From Escherichia coli (GTDB taxonomy: Bacteria; Pseudomonadota; Gammaproteobacteria; Enterobacterales; Enterobacteriaceae): a DNA stretch of 5,921 nucleotides. The notes under the pieces are model-generated. The model had not been told where the DNA came from, did no database searches, and worked only from the letters and a program-made list of their open reading frames with translations. Of this stretch, positions 1 to 5,921 are shown one piece after another. The DNA lies in the NCBI RefSeq assembly GCF_003334815.1, contig NZ_QOWO01000069.1; one strand, 5' to 3'. A program made the position numbers and the translations under genes. Every line of letters starts with the position of its first letter. Position 1 is the first letter of the stretch.

Positions 1-315
1 GACCCGCCGCAACGACGAAGAGCGCGTGCGCGAAACGGCGTTGCCCCTCACATCCCGGCGGCCTTTTGCCGGGATGCAGGGAGCGCAGGCCACGGCGCGA
101 CAGAGGCGGCGCGACCGGAACGGTCGCTGCAAGCCAGGGGTTTCGCGTCAGGGATGGAAGCCCGTCAGGGCGGAGACAGCTTCGCTGGCTCCGTTCACGA
201 CAGCCCGCCCCGTCAGGGGGACGCCCGGAAAAGGCATAAGCAGGAGAACAACAAAACAGACAGTAATCAGGACAGCAGTAATCAGAGTCAGAACAGGAGG
301 AAAAAGAGAATAATC
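1..315. repeat. Copy A of a ~290-bp direct repeat; candidate Frpo/ssi-type single-stranded-DNA promoter element (begins at the window edge, so may be truncated)
   Basis: Positions 51..270 are identical base for base to 5682..5901 (220 bp); 1..50 matches 5631..5681 with a few substitutions and one indel. Internal dyad symmetry: 51-59/68-76 (9-bp stem), 111-117/121-127 (7-bp stem), 29-36/140-147, and imperfect long-range pairing 37-51/212-225. Purine-rich 3' tail. Functional call is inference from position in an IncF leading region. Confidence 0.6.
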
Positions 316-464
316 AAAGGGAAGGTGATGTGATTTCTGACAGGTCATAAACAGAGAAGGCGGGGGAAAAGAACGGGCGCCGCAGGCGCACGTTCATCCC
401 CGTTCCCGGAGGGAAACGGCCTTCCTGGCAGTCTGGTTGTTCATGCCCGCACAATGCCAGCAAG

Positions 465-570
465 GGGAAAGGGGCCACCGGCGAACCAGCAGCCCCTTTA
501 TAAAGGCGCTTCAGTGCAGTCAGACCAGCATCAGCCCTGAAAAGGCGGGCCTGCGCCCGCCTCCAGGTTG
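465..570 (-). terminator. hok mRNA 3' region: GC hairpin immediately after the hok stop (544-550/555-561) plus terminator-like hairpin (471-476/491-496) followed by T-run on the minus strand; contains the presumed fbi element
   Basis: Minus-strand sequence closely matches the 3' end of the R1 hok mRNA as I recall it. Stem-loops seen directly in the sequence. Confidence 0.5.
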
Positions 571-732
571 CTACTTACCGCCGGATTCGTAAGCCATTGT
601 TGCCGTAACTTCCCTGTATCCGTCCTTCAGCCGGACTTCGCACAGGCGATTCCGGGTCAGGAGTGTGAATATCAACAACGTGCAGCACACGATTAATACG
701 CACCAGATAAGGGCGTTTCCCGGTAGTTTCAT
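571..732 (-). CDS. hok: Hok-family type I toxin (small membrane-depolarising peptide), 53 aa
   Basis: Hand translation of minus strand from ATG at 732 to TAG at 571-573 gives [53 protein letters not shown], which closely resembles R1 Hok (hydrophobic N-terminus, conserved LCE and MAYESG motifs). RBS AAGGAGGAG about 6 nt upstream. Absent from the ORF track because it is under 60 aa. The symbol flmA/srnB is equally possible depending on the plasmid. Confidence 0.85.
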
Positions 733-790
733 GGTTTACTCCTCCTTGCAATTTGCACGGTAAGAGGCCATACTGACGTGGATGAGACAT
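575..790 (-). CDS. mok: Mok-like overlapping reading frame (translation of hok is coupled to it)
   Basis: 71-aa ORF in a different frame that starts upstream of hok (ATG at 790) and overlaps almost all of hok, ending 4 nt before the hok stop; this is the characteristic mok/hok arrangement. Confidence 0.6.
746..774 (+). promoter_or_regulatory. Candidate sok promoter: -35 TTGCAA (746-751), 17-nt spacer, -10 CATACT (769-774)
   Basis: Plus-strand sigma70-like hexamers opposite the mok translation initiation region, at the position of the sok promoter in R1 hok/sok. The -10 is weak (4 of 6 match). Confidence 0.4.
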
Positions 791-845
791 ACAGTGGGCC
801 TCGTGGGTTAATGAAAATTAACTACGGGGCTTTCTGCTTTCTGCC
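780..845 (+). ncRNA. sok: Sok-like antisense RNA (antitoxin of the hok/sok system); ends approximate
   Basis: Inferred from the hok/mok architecture: an antisense RNA of about 64 nt starting just after the candidate promoter and complementary to the hok mRNA leader / mok start. Coordinates estimated, not measured. Confidence 0.4.
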
Positions 846-900
846 ACACGACAGGATAACAAACCACCTTCACGTCATGAGGCAGAAAGCCTCAAGCGCC

Positions 901-940
901 GGGCACATCATAGCCCATATACCTGCACACTGACCACACT
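901..940 (-). promoter_or_regulatory. Candidate hok/mok promoter; -10 TATGAT at 907-912 on the minus strand, transcript 5' end near 900
   Basis: Minus-strand sequence from 900 downward (GGCGCTTGAGGCTTTCTGCCTCATGACGTGAAGGTGG...) matches the 5' end of the R1 hok mRNA as I recall it. TATGAT lies 6 nt upstream of that 5' end. The -35 is not clear. Confidence 0.45.
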
Positions 941-1146
941 CACTTTCCCTGAAAATAATCAGGTCGTTCAGCCAGTTCCCGGGCAATCAGTTCATCCGCA
1001 AACAGTGGTGCATGCCTGTTGATACGTTTCTCCAGATTCCGCCGTCGTACCGCAGCCTTACGTTCTTCGCTCCAGCGGCGCACCGGGCGGTCAGAAATAA
1101 AATCCAGACAGACCGCATACCCTGCTCCGGCAACCCAGCGTGACAT
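940..1146 (-). CDS. Hypothetical small protein (68 aa from ATG at 1146; the track ORF extends to a GTG at 1287 and would overlap the psiA 3' end)
   Basis: Open frame between psiA and the hok promoter. C-terminal part is charged and helix-like (RRWSEERKAAVRRRNLEKRINRH...). No convincing Shine-Dalgarno before ATG 1146. Start and reality both uncertain. Confidence 0.3.
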   Translation of the reverse strand: MSRWVAGAGYAVCLDFISDRPVRRWSEERKAAVRRRNLEKRINRHAPLFADELIARELAERPDYFQGK

Positions 1147-1250
1147 AACGGATGCCGGAGCAGGCTGCCCCGCCTCCACCACTTCTGAAACCAGTTCATG
1201 CTCGCCAGGACAGGGATAAGGCAGTTTCCAGCGCAGTGAGTAACGCCACT

Positions 1251-1970
1251 TCACGCCGCCTCCCGGAGTTTGTTCGGCACCATCCACCGCTCCATCTCAC
1301 GGACGGCATGACCGGCCTCCCTTGCCGCCATACCAGCCTCTGCGGTGACCTGCCAGAATGGCATATCCTGCCACTGCCAGCGTTCCATCCCGGCCAGTGA
1401 CGGAAAACGCTCGCCCCACTGCCAGAACAGGGTTTCCAGGTCATGCTCTGCCACCCGGTCACTCCAGCGTGCATGCCAGCTTCCGACTGTTTCCGGTGAA
1501 TGGAACGCCAGTTCGATTTCTGCCTGAGCAACCAGCGCCTGGTACGCACGGGTTTTCTGCTCTGCCTCCCTCGCCTGCTGACGGCTGTACTTCTGCATGA
1601 CCAGTGCGGATTTATGGCGACTGCGTTCCCTGACACGGAACCGCACTGACGGGAACAACTGCTCTGCTGCATCGCAGGGAAGAGGAAGAAGGCAGACCTC
1701 GCCCTGAGTTTCAATCAGCACATCGACGGCATACAGCCACTGAGAACGGTTGCCGCGCAGTTCTTCTGCGGTCAGGGACGGCATGAAAAATCGCAGGTCA
1801 GACAGCGAAATCCTGCGGCTTCCGTTCAGACAGCGGAAAAACGCCCCCGCATACGGATATTCCGCCAGCGTGTTCCCCTGATGGCGGCGTTTTTCCGTCT
1901 CCGCCACCGCCTGCCATGCGGCCTGTTGCTCTGTGCTGAGGGGAACCAGTGCCTGTGAACGTGCGCTCAT
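1251..1970 (-). CDS. psiA: Plasmid SOS inhibition protein PsiA, 239 aa
   Basis: 239-aa ORF immediately downstream of and translationally coupled to psiB (ATGA overlap at 1967-1970); length and sequence match PsiA of F-like plasmids as recalled. RBS GGAAGGAGG about 6 nt upstream. Confidence 0.9.
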
Positions 1971-2401
1971 ACCTGACCTCCTTCCGCCATCAGGATATGA
2001 ATGATGTCGTTAACGCTGTACCCCTGCGCATTCAGTGATGCCGCCAGTGCCAGTGAATGGCTGACGGCTTCCGGTGCAAACCGCCGCTGTACCTGAACCA
2101 CCGCAAACGGCTCACCACCGGCATTCACCAGAACCAGCACCCAGACCTGAGAGACATCGCCCGGTGAACATAACGCCAGGTGAAAACGTTCGTGGGCAGG
2201 CGTGAAACGGACCTGGACGGGGAAAAATCCGCCAAACTCACTGCCGTACTCGCCGTTCATCGTCCAGTTGTCCGGCGCATCCAGCTCCCGCATCACGGCG
2301 TGTGTCAGCTCACGGCGTTCATCACTTCCGGCAGCCCGGATATCTTCATATTCCTGTGCGCTCATGGTCTGTAATACATTCAGGGTCAGTTCAGTTTTCA
2401 T
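1967..2401 (-). CDS. psiB: Plasmid SOS inhibition protein PsiB (RecA inhibitor), 144 aa
   Basis: Translation from ATG at 2401 ([66 protein letters not shown]...) is near-identical to F-plasmid PsiB as I recall it. The track start at 2404 is a GTG one codon upstream; the ATG has RBS GGGAGA with a 7-nt spacer. Confidence 0.93.
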
Positions 2402-2455
2402 CACGGTATCTCCCTTGCTGCCGCCCCGTCTCCGGCGGGGCGGTGTGGTTGTTCA

Positions 2456-4423
2456 TCAGGCGGCATCGGCCTGGTTGTCACGGTATTCCGTGGTTTCCGT
2501 CTCTGCCTGTGGACGTGGTGTACACATCCAGCCAGGCACCCAGCGGTTGTCTTTCATGTGGAGCTCTGCATGTTCAGCCGCATCGCCTTTCTTCATTTTC
2601 TCCGCGTCCCGCGCAGCACCGGACAGTCCTGCATCATTCAGGGCATCGATAATCTGCGGCTTTTTCAGATGTCCGAAGAAGTTTGCTTTTGTCGGCTGCC
2701 ACCAGTCACGCATGTGGAACCCGATAGCGGTTTCCAGCGAGTCAAGCGGACTGCGTGACGTGTGACCATGCTCGCGAGTCTGGACACCATCCACGGAACA
2801 GGCTGTACAGAAAACCATCAGACTCATCAGAGTCTGTCCGTTAAGCGTGAAGAATGTGGTGAAATCTTTCTGCCAGCCCTCCGGCAACAGAGCCTCCAGA
2901 CGGGCTTTTTCCTGCATCAGACTCAGCCACGCCTGACCTCTCTTTCCACCGGGAGCATCACTTGTCAGCCTTCTGTGATTCTCTTCAATCTGTATCCTGA
3001 ACGGGTGGAGAGTGGTATTGCAGTAATCAAAAACACAACAGCACAATCGCCAGACCATCAGTGCCACTGTTTTTTCAGGTTGATGTATCAGCGCCGCCTG
3101 GACTGCCAGCGTGCGCTCTGAGGACATTTTCGTCAGCAACGGCAGGCTGATTTCCTCCACTGACGCTTTCTCCTGCACCTGTTCCGTGCGGTCAGCGTCG
3201 TCAGCCACGTCATCCTCACTGCGCAACTGCACACCACGCTGGACACACACGTTGCCATAACGCCAGGACACCACCACTCCACCTCCGGCACGCATCTCCG
3301 GCGTCCACGCTCTGACCTTCGCCATGCAGCGCATCAGCTTCATTTCTGCTTCCAGCAGGTCAGATTCCTCACACTGGTTTTCCAGCGCGTCGTAACGCGT
3401 CATCAGTTCGTTCAGGCGTTCTTCTTCCGCCTCCGTCAGCACCGCTTCCGGCTCCGGCAGACAGCGGTATGTTCCGGCATCCTCACGGCACTCACCGACA
3501 GGCTCCATGCGCCCGGCGCACCATTCCCAGCCTTCGGCTTCCCGAAGGTGTTCAGCAACAGCCTGGAGTTTTTCCAGCAGGGCGGCATTGAGCGCCACGC
3601 AGTCCACATAGCCACCTTCGTCGTCGCTGAACAAATCGGTGCGCAGTTCATCTGGCGAGAAGGCATCAGCCCCCACAAAGCGGAATTTACTGTTCCCCGC
3701 CACCGCCACTTCACTTTCGGTCACCAGACGACGAATGGTCTGTACTTCCGGTTTACCGCCCCATCCCGACTGACAGGCGGCTTCAAACACCTGCACCTGA
3801 CGCGCGGTGTCATTCTCCAGCGCCAGCGCCTGACAGTGTTCGGTGGTGATGCGGTCTTCTGCCAGCGCATCGAGGATGACAGGCGCAAGGTCAGCCAGTT
3901 TCAGCATTCGCTGGACATGGCGGGGTGAATAACCCAGCAAGTCACCGATTTGTGCAGGTGTTTTGCCTTCCTGCGCCATTGCGCGGAATCCGGCAATCTG
4001 TTCGGCAGGATGCATATCCCGACGATGACCGTTTTCAGTCATTGATGCGGCAGTCGCCAGCTCCTGCGGAATGACCTTCACACGGACAGGCCAGTCAGCC
4101 GGAAGGATGCCACGCTCTGCCAGCATGTTGAGTGCAGCCAGTCGGCGACCACCTGCGGCGACACCGTAACGCTCACCCGACAGGGCATGAACAACCAGAT
4201 TCTGCAACAGGCCGACGCCCTTAATGGACTCCGCCAGTTCGCTGACGGACTCTGCGGAATACGGCACAGTGCGCACATTCAGCGGTGATTTAATCAGTGA
4301 GGCCAGCGACACGCTCACTTCTTCCGTCTGCGCCAGCAGGGCAGACAGTGCAGTCTCCTGCACTTTTGACGGTTTACGGCTGGATTTACGCCCCGCTTTT
4401 ACCTTAAACTCTGTAACTGACAT
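2456..4423 (-). CDS. ParB/Srx-domain protein of the plasmid leading region (ParB-like nuclease/DNA-binding domain at N-terminus, long uncharacterised C-terminal region), 655 aa
   Basis: 655-aa ORF with ATG at 4423 and RBS AAGGGA. N-terminus carries ParB box motifs (SPLNVR around residues 46-51; GGRRLAAL at residues 91-98, resembling the GERRxRA arginine patch) and a helix-turn-helix-like segment (TPAQIGDLLGYSPRHVQRML). The C-terminal ~400 aa have no motif I recognise. A large ParB-like gene next to ssb is a hallmark of IncF/IncI leading regions. Confidence 0.85.
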   Translation of the reverse strand: MSVTEFKVKAGRKSSRKPSKVQETALSALLAQTEEVSVSLASLIKSPLNVRTVPYSAESVSELAESIKGVGLLQNLVVHALSGERYGVAAGGRRLAALNMLAERGILPADWPVRVKVIPQELATAASMTENGHRRDMHPAEQIAGFRAMAQEGKTPAQIGDLLGYSPRHVQRMLKLADLAPVILDALAEDRITTEHCQALALENDTARQVQVFEAACQSGWGGKPEVQTIRRLVTESEVAVAGNSKFRFVGADAFSPDELRTDLFSDDEGGYVDCVALNAALLEKLQAVAEHLREAEGWEWCAGRMEPVGECREDAGTYRCLPEPEAVLTEAEEERLNELMTRYDALENQCEESDLLEAEMKLMRCMAKVRAWTPEMRAGGGVVVSWRYGNVCVQRGVQLRSEDDVADDADRTEQVQEKASVEEISLPLLTKMSSERTLAVQAALIHQPEKTVALMVWRLCCCVFDYCNTTLHPFRIQIEENHRRLTSDAPGGKRGQAWLSLMQEKARLEALLPEGWQKDFTTFFTLNGQTLMSLMVFCTACSVDGVQTREHGHTSRSPLDSLETAIGFHMRDWWQPTKANFFGHLKKPQIIDALNDAGLSGAARDAEKMKKGDAAEHAELHMKDNRWVPGWMCTPRPQAETETTEYRDNQADAA

Positions 4424-4483
4424 GATTATTCCCTTTATGGTTTAGTTAATGTCTGCCGGACGCCTTCCCGTCCGGCACCTCTC

Positions 4484-4756
<273 letters not shown>

Positions 4757-4774
4757 TTATCACGATCAGCCCGA

Positions 4775-5302
4775 TCAGAACGGAATGTCGTCATCGAAGT
4801 TATACGCGGGTTCAGACGGCTGCTGAGGCTCGGGCTGCGCGGCCTTACGTCCACGGCCTTTCGTTTTCGCGCCTCCTTTTTTCGGTTCCGGCTGTGGTTC
4901 CTGCTGAGGCTGACCGCTGAACTGTTGTGCCTCTTCCGGCTGAGTCTGAGCACCTGCGGCACGTCCCAGCATCTGCATGGTGCCCGTGGTCTTAACAAGA
5001 ATTTCAGTGACGTAACGGGTGATACCGTTATCTTCCCAGCTACGGGTACGGAGTTGCCCCTCGATGTAGACCTGCTCGCCCTTGTGCAGATATTCACCGG
5101 CCACTTCCGCGAGCTTGCCGAACAGCACCACGCGATGCCATTCTGTCTGCTCCCGTATCTCCCCCGTCTGTTTGTCACGCCAGCTTTCTGACGTGGCCAC
5201 CTGCAGGTTTGCCACTGCGCCCCCGTTTGGGATGTAACGGACTTCCGGATCTTTTCCCAGACGACCGACAAGAATGACCTTGTTAATGCCACGAACTGCC
5301 AT
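4775..5302 (-). CDS. ssb: Plasmid-encoded single-stranded DNA-binding protein, 175 aa
   Basis: Translation from ATG at 5302 ([48 protein letters not shown]...[19 protein letters not shown]...) has the SSB OB-fold core, a Gln/Pro-rich linker and the acidic C-terminal tail DDDIPF. Strong RBS AAGGAG 7 nt upstream. The track ORF begins 13 codons upstream (5341), but the RBS-supported ATG is at 5302. Confidence 0.92.
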
Positions 5303-5485
5303 GATGTATCTCCTTCTGTTGATGTTTTCAGCCCCCATCATCTTTTGAGTTTCGGGAGCCGCGGTTTTGACGTTTTGCGGGGACCTGCCTTTTGTTCCCT
5401 ACGGTATTCACCATCACCTTTTTGAGAACCTTCGCCGCAAGGGGCATCACTGCCACGGCCTGACGCACCTGTCCTGGGCAGAACG

Positions 5486-5521
5486 CAAAATTTTTTACCG
5501 GGTTCTGGGTAAAAAATTTTG
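5486..5521. repeat. Perfect 14-bp AT-rich inverted repeat (CAAAATTTTTTACC / GGTAAAAAATTTTG) with 8-nt spacer; candidate operator or structured regulatory site upstream of ssb
   Basis: Arms 5486-5499 and 5508-5521 are exact reverse complements; an extra C-G pair at 5484/5523. No flanking T-run on either strand, so unlikely to be an intrinsic terminator. Confidence 0.6.
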
Positions 5522-5630
5522 TGGGCTGTTCATTTACCCTGGACAGTCAGTGCGGCAGGTTGTGGCTGTATCAGCCCCCGGCGACAGGGGCTTAAACAGG
5601 TGAATGGCACCGGACACAACAACGGGCAGG

Positions 5631-5921
5631 GACCCGCCGCAACGACGTGAAGCGCGGTTTGCGAAACGGCGTTGCGCCTTACATCCCGGCGGCCTTTTGC
5701 CGGGATGCAGGGAGCGCAGGCCACGGCGCGACAGAGGCGGCGCGACCGGAACGGTCGCTGCAAGCCAGGGGTTTCGCGTCAGGGATGGAAGCCCGTCAGG
5801 GCGGAGACAGCTTCGCTGGCTCCGTTCACGACAGCCCGCCCCGTCAGGGGGACGCCCGGAAAAGGCATAAGCAGGAGAACAACAAAACAGACAGTAATCA
5901 GAGCAGCAGAAAAAAGAAGAA
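5631..5921. repeat. Copy B of the ~290-bp direct repeat; candidate Frpo/ssi-type single-stranded-DNA promoter upstream of the ssb operon (runs to the window end, so may be truncated)
   Basis: 5682..5901 is identical to 51..270; flanks diverge. Begins about 330 nt upstream (minus-strand sense) of the ssb start codon. Same internal hairpins as copy A. Confidence 0.6.

Follow-up and report, generated by a model that had tools for sequence, protein, structure and literature searches.

The ssiD/Frpo element of plasmid F, also named Frpo1, reportedly goes back to Masai and Arai in 1997, and the ssi1-ssi3 elements of ColIb-P9 and R64 are said to go back to Bates in 1999 and Nasim in 2004. F carries two elements of this kind, Frpo1 and Frpo2, which are 92% identical and lie ~5 kb apart with flm/hok between them; Frpo1, whose activity has been demonstrated experimentally, drives ygeA/ygeB, Frpo2 drives the genes from ssb to flmC, and ygeA or ssb/yfjA are no longer expressed early, before conversion, once Frpo1 or Frpo2, respectively, is deleted (Couturier et al., 2023, PMC9849209). 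An Frpo-acrIIA4 construct protected F from Cas9 in vivo (PMC11541004). Wen et al. (2025, PMC12672017) place the ssi1-ssi3 elements of ColIb-P9 and R64 among the class 1 ssDNA promoters, a class that is backed by RNA-seq and 5' RACE (PMC12672017) and whose transcripts prime complementary-strand synthesis in vivo (bioRxiv 10.64898/2026.01.09.698686). On pO26-CRL125, the Frpo-containing repeats R1-R3 bracket a 9.7-kb leading-region module (Venturini et al., 2013, PMC3817090).

Here we compare these systems with a window of 5,921 nt (the whole stretch of DNA that was analysed) that carries a direct repeat, copy A at its left edge and copy B at its right. We are confident that copy A is the distal part (upstream in the transcription sense, 3' on the transferred strand) of a second class-1 Frpo/ssi unit, the counterpart of F Frpo1 (ssiD). 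A sequence-only reading of the same DNA had proposed an early operon running leftwards beyond position 1; that proposal is right by homology, but the layout is already known, paired Frpo units flanking flm/hok having been tested in F (2023) and Frpo-bracketed modules having been described in 2013.

Gene content, the repeat and the ssb-proximal hairpin

Judged by its sequence, the window is the conserved leading region of an F-like conjugative plasmid, with every sizeable gene on the minus strand. Gene calls and annotation matching in relatives delimit an operon from ssb to a flmC-like ORF (940-5302, minus strand), which comprises ssb (4775-5302) and a DUF905/yfjB-like ORF (4484-4744), a ParB-like, yfjA-like gene of 655 aa (2456-4423), psiB (1967-2404), psiA (1251-1970) and the flmC-like ORF itself (940-1287). 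Further left on the same strand lie the sok/hok-leader region (730-901; Rfam RF01794, 98 bits) and the hok toxin gene (571-732; NCBIfam Hok family, 102 bits). Sok was the only Rfam match in the whole window, and a search of window 1-600 up to E <= 1 returned no match. A second stem (GGGGC...GCCCC, then TTTCCCC) at ~470-496 (site 470-500) is probably the 3' end of the hok mRNA, and a terminator-like GC hairpin with a T-rich tail (GCGCCTGCGGCGC CCGTTCTTTT) lies at 377-389 on the minus strand, between the hok terminator region and the repeat.

At least 5000 plasmid records contain a match to window 1-1300, and most of them are conjugative IncF plasmids from Escherichia or Klebsiella. The closest matches to the window, in plasmids and E. 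coli genomes, are 96-98.5% identical, the 21 metagenome loci are all at or below 97%, and a search of viral contigs with the window gave no match. In relatives, traM and oriT sit 3-7 kb further left, beyond the hairpin core and first gene described below, so the window's plus strand is the transferred (T) strand, the template for all window genes.

Copies A and B match at 97% over 30-286 and 5661-5917 and at 88% over 1-26 and 5631-5656, and blastn joins these segments into a single alignment of 1-281 with 5631-5912 (96.1%, 282 nt, one 1-nt indel). Identity of 96% over ~280 nt far exceeds what chance would produce, and it confirms the second copy downstream of hok that had been noticed from the letters alone. 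Copy A lies 3' of hok (minus strand) and touches the left window edge, the alignment beginning exactly at position 1; copy B (5631-5912, plus strand) consists of the 3' strand of a basal stem followed by two GC-rich segments, tail-1 and tail-2, and is cut by the right window edge. The homology stops at ~281-286, and the unique, purine-rich stretch at 287-315 is therefore not part of the repeat. The repeated segment itself occurs in at least 5000 plasmid records, at ~3 places per record. Three units of a human gut metagenome contig (UOJK01000260; 2473, 4103 and 9513) carry the same 44-nt variant as copy A, which points to sequence homogenisation (gene conversion) among the copies within a plasmid.

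Reference Frpo/ssi sequences were taken from the supplementary table of Samuel et al. (2024, PMC11541004), F ssiD being D90178, the original Frpo. Full-length F ssiD (351 nt) aligns to window 5332-5681 at 87.9%, and single-stranded folding of 5325-5921 yields one long imperfect hairpin at ~5349-5664 (-153 kcal/mol, z = -9.2). On the strength of this homology and fold we assign 5349-5664 (plus strand) as an ssDNA promoter of the Frpo2 type in front of ssb; the loop, at 5500-5507, lies between A/T-rich arms, and the basal stem pairs 5633-5664 with 5352-5382. A putative -35-like box (TGGACA, 5540-5545) would be paired in the stem and a putative -10-like box (TATCAG, 5569-5574) would lie over an internal loop; these boxes, imperfectly assigned, are separated by 23 nt along the right arm and by 20 nt along the template arm. 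A scan for consensus promoters missed the hairpin promoter, whose weak boxes and long spacer put it out of reach. Window 5300-5589 is 98% identical to the Frpo-acrIIA4 construct (F 8356-8646, locus coordinates). Since the hairpin and the segment sufficient in vivo map to 5300-5630, the promoter proper lies there, in single copy in the window, and the repeat is its far-side flank.

In RefSeq/PGAP annotation, Frpo cores upstream of ssb and of the ygeA-type gene carry a CDS called 'single-stranded DNA-binding protein', either short or frameshifted (NZ_OZ042071 locus 6698-6903 and 12347-12552; NZ_CP024248 locus 17277-17372; window equivalent 5303-5560). The ssb-like CDS over the hairpin core is an annotation artefact on a non-coding promoter hairpin.

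Copy A and the unit left of position 1

Only the last 48 nt of F ssiD match copy A. Window 1-48 (plus strand) is the terminal ~48 nt of an element of the F ssiD/Frpo type (ssiD nt 302-349 against window 2-48, 87.5%), and ~3-34 (plus strand), equivalent to 5633-5664, supplies the 3' side of the promoter hairpin's basal stem, whose pairing partner lies off-window to the left; over window 1-330, tail included, identity to the F sequence next to ssiD is 93%. When window 1-330 was folded alone, small hairpins only were obtained (z = -3.3). Because copy A as it stands in the window lacks the 5' arm, the loop and the boxes and folds to small hairpins, it is no promoter by itself. It had been read as a leftward-firing ssDNA promoter like copy B: by homology it does belong to such a unit, but the repeated segment is the flank and the promoter hairpin is off-window.

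What lies left of position 1 was read from relatives. Both the core and the first gene are readable in NZ_CP050381, NZ_OZ042071, CP024975, NZ_CP107336 and six metagenome contigs, and one further contig (L132) ends before any gene. Every relative with a readable left flank has the hairpin core directly left of the tail (IS-cut in two), and this contiguity was seen in F, five other F-like plasmids, ColIb-P9 and eight metagenome contigs. The repeat thus continues beyond the window in relatives, the homology of copy A running ~300 nt further left than position 1. Fully read loci (NZ_CP050381, NZ_OZ042071, CP024975, NZ_CP107336, NZ_CP135716 and ColIb-P9) hold two to four units each, with the core abutting tail-1 in nearly all copies. 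A long hairpin with -35/-10-like boxes on the transferred strand is present for the ssb-proximal unit and in relatives. In F itself, ssiD maps to locus 13657-14004 (98%), between the tail (13376-13705) and a CDS at 14033-14320 in the position of ygeA, with hok at 13010-13135, and a second ssiD copy precedes ssb.

In the four plasmids and six metagenome contigs, the start of the first minus-strand gene lies 16-31 nt beyond the core, which puts it ~300-340 nt to the left of window position 1; in the contig with a partial core match (L141), the first ORF was found 108 nt beyond the core. Three alternative first genes occur at this place among relatives, and the gene after them is either ygeB-like (80 aa) or of the DUF932 type; the operon beyond the position-1 equivalent holds small ygeA/ygeB-type or yubO-type genes and then a DUF932 gene. 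Neither NCBIfam nor PHROGs assigned a function to these genes; the DUF932-type protein matched a PHROG of unknown function. The expectation of genes beyond the left edge, towards oriT, agrees with this arrangement, in which a minus-strand gene follows 16-31 nt past the core and traM/oriT come 3-7 kb left. Minus-strand genes are thus found where they had been proposed, but the orf169/X transglycosylase named among the candidates is on the opposite strand, further left, and is therefore not part of the leftward operon.

An intact core and an active unit at copy A in this plasmid are predictions from these homologies, and we considered that copy A might instead be a dead remnant here, its core IS-interrupted or deleted and no early operon driven. 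Precedents exist in NZ_CP024248, the best match to window 1-1300 (98.5%), whose core is interrupted by ISSso4 (IS21 family) at a point 82 nt to the left of the window-equivalent start, and in NZ_CP135716, in which an IS66-family element cuts the first gene and an orphan tail-1 is present. However, the window shares no more than 98.5% identity with the IS-bearing NZ_CP024248 and differs from it elsewhere; core, tail and hok flank are contiguous and intact (906-nt query, at least 80% covered) in at least 3560 of the best 5000 plasmid records; and all eight metagenome contigs that contain the window's distinctive 44-mer in the hok-proximal context have the core directly to the left, partial in L141. 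We therefore regard a dead remnant as unlikely and retain the second Frpo/ssi unit as the preferred reading. In NZ_CP024248, a plasmid typed as non-mobilizable that gives the best match to the left part of the window, ISSso4 (istA/istB, locus 9280-11918) sits between the -35-like and -10-like boxes, and the flanking core pieces overlap by 7 nt.

The GC-rich tail

The repeat consists largely of two GC-rich segments on the plus strand: the conserved tail-1 (35-147), which abuts each of the hairpin cores examined and contains helices H2 (51-76), H3 (83-98) and H4 (111-127), and tail-2 (148-240), which is found in a subset of units only and contains H5 (160-171), H6 (172-192) and H7 (208-219). A purine-rich variable tract follows (241-315, plus strand; 75% A+G, 40% GC), within which the A/B homology ends at ~281-286. 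The tail is 70% GC and 86-99% identical among copies. Tail-1 adjoins a core in all copies but one (NZ_CP024248, NZ_CP050381, F, NZ_OZ042071, CP024975, NZ_CP107336, NZ_CP135716, NZ_CP073057 and ColIb-P9), the exception being an isolated tail-1 in NZ_CP135716, so the tail is no strict guarantee of a promoter. ColIb-P9 ssi3 and ssi2 share window 75-147 at 87-93%, and tail-2 is swapped for an alternative sequence in units beside the klcA/DUF1380 operon.

Covariation was assessed in an alignment of 13 divergent copies, a small sample of related sequences, in which the three tail helices were 95.7% paired, compared to 27-57% with partners slid. Five pairs were changed on both sides, four of them in H4 (4/7 of its pairs), which occurs as GCGACCG/CGGTCGC, GTGACCG/CGGTCAC and GCATCC/GGATGC; these compensatory changes are suggestive of genuine tail stems. 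The strand test (G-T versus A-C pairs) had few informative cells, two favouring the plus strand and one the minus strand. Since the Frpo-acrIIA4 construct works without the tail, the tail is dispensable for promoter function in that assay.

Several variants of the tail and tract were observed. One copy in NZ_CP135716 (locus 12149-12161) lacks the segment from the 3' half of H5 to the 5' half of H7 through a deletion between two CCCGCCAGGG motifs in the H5 and H7 loop regions, implying that part of tail-2 is dispensable or recombination-prone. In the Klebsiella IncFII plasmid NZ_CP073057 (3883-4290 and 6850-7290), clusters that resemble the tail and correspond to H4-H7 stand behind long hairpins of other kinds. 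One of these hairpins, a near-perfect stem of 19 bp (CAGTAAGGAAATAAAGGGG...; z = -10.6), precedes an antirestriction gene, and the other is class-1-like but divergent, which suggests that the tail can accompany more than one type of ssDNA promoter. Hexamer expansions, (CAGTAG)n or runs rich in GAA/GAG, make the tract beyond the tail differ between copies and plasmids (NZ_CP050381 7716-7790, NZ_OZ042071 12932-12965, F ~8000-8070), and on the minus strand it holds an open hydrophobic frame in every version, probably for compositional reasons. A scan of genome contigs with the degenerate tail motif GGGAGCGCN7GGCGCGAC gave chance matches only, in GC-rich genomes, and the motif was discarded.

The near-constant position of the tail beside class-1 hairpins, its conservation between IncF and IncI1 plasmids, its compensatory stems and the NZ_CP073057 cluster beside a structurally different hairpin lead us to offer, tentatively, a role of its own for the tail (~35-240): as a separate conserved ssDNA hairpin cluster beside ssDNA promoters it might insulate early operons, load priming or replication machinery, or stabilise the promoter hairpin against SSB. 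No role of this kind is described in the Frpo/ssi literature consulted for that question.

A coding explanation, in which a protein gene duplicated in the leading region accounts for the repeat, is very improbable. Some records do label ORFs over the tail as 'YubN', 'hypothetical protein' or 'theronine dehydrogenase' (e.g. NZ_OZ042071 7017-7352; CP024975 3154-3333), and the candidates in the window are 'Uncharacterized protein YubN' (154-333, plus strand; annotation in CP024975), a PGAP hypothetical protein (26-313, plus strand) and a small hydrophobic ORF (148-348, minus strand), which overlap one another; the YubN ORF is probably not coding. The minus-strand frame is open in 10/10 copies, and one -1/+1 indel pair in F restores it, but open frames are expected from 70% GC and a purine-rich composition. 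None of the tail ORFs has an NCBIfam match; those on the plus strand are antisense to every other leading-region gene; 1-nt indels separate tail copies, one of which PGAP calls frameshifted; the start codon of the minus frame is missing in several copies, and copy A lacks a Shine-Dalgarno sequence. The variation falls in hairpin loops, stem changes being compensatory. With a frame that is not conserved across copies and no protein-family match, coding status was rejected.

We give next to no credence to the repeat being an unrelated mobile element (IS/MITE), an alternative already raised from the letters alone, or a recent functionless local duplication: it is dispersed (two to four copies per plasmid in the fully read loci and up to seven matching places in some records), but it has no transposase, terminal inverted repeat or target duplication, all copies share one orientation and lie between genes, upstream of leading-region operons and nearly always beside an Frpo-type hairpin, and the segment is common to IncF and IncI1 plasmids with compensatory stem changes.

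Proposed mechanism and comparison with known systems

We propose that copy A belongs to a second Frpo/ssi unit of a recurrent type, in which each unit would span ~600 nt and consist of a ~310-nt imperfect hairpin by the first gene, then the GC-rich hairpin tail and then the variable purine-rich tract. On this model the window would hold the complete ssb unit (hairpin 5349-5664, tail 5631-5912) and, of the second unit, no more than the tail and one side of the basal stem, its 3' strand (~3-34). During conjugation the T strand, led by its 5' end at oriT, would enter the recipient in the left-to-right order of the window, so that each operon should, from this geometry, enter before its own promoter hairpin. 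The hairpin formed on ssDNA would rebuild a duplex sigma-70 promoter, from which host RNA polymerase would transcribe leftwards, towards oriT; the 3' arm would serve as the non-template strand, and RNA polymerase would read the 5' arm and onward left into the genes. The resulting transcript may also prime complementary-strand synthesis. In duplex DNA, 23 nt would separate the plus-strand boxes, which would face away from the genes, and bulges in the hairpin would cut the spacing to 20 nt on the template arm; this difference, which depends on the putative boxes, would fit a loss of activity after complementary-strand synthesis. The homology, the fold of the hairpin and the contiguity of core and tail in relatives come from this analysis; the ssDNA-specific promoter activity that the units would share is taken from the literature on F.

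Two practical corrections follow for the annotation of such windows: the repeat is the flank and not the promoter, and annotation routinely mistakes the hairpin for a frameshifted ssb pseudogene and the tail for YubN or a hypothetical protein.

The closest described counterpart of copy A is F Frpo1. Copy A likewise lies downstream of flm/hok, proximal to oriT and in the same orientation, with a ygeA/ygeB-type operon next to it in relatives, and the window tail is 93% identical to F 13376-13705 as window 2-48 matches ssiD nt 302-349. In contrast to F Frpo1, the window contains only the outer ~50 nt of the ssiD clone and its flank, the boxes are off-window and the first gene varies among relatives. 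Copy B together with its core is the same element as F Frpo2 and the Frpo-acrIIA4 construct, placed upstream of ssb, yfjB, yfjA, psiB, psiA and flmC, with no substantial difference. The ssi elements of ColIb-P9 and R64 share the hairpin architecture and the placement upstream of ssb and other leading-region operons, and ColIb-P9 ssi3 (upstream of ssb) and the copy upstream of the next operon share window 75-147 at 87-93%; ColIb-P9 differs in a core of ~79% identity over ~90 nt, other sequence at the position of H2 and an alternative tail-2. The proposal that the window's gene block is bracketed by two promoter-like repeats, as a modular island, matches the published Frpo-bracketed modules (PMC3817090): on pO26-CRL125, a block between direct Frpo repeats is likewise lost or gained by recombination between them, although that plasmid is of the IncI1 type and carries other cargo.
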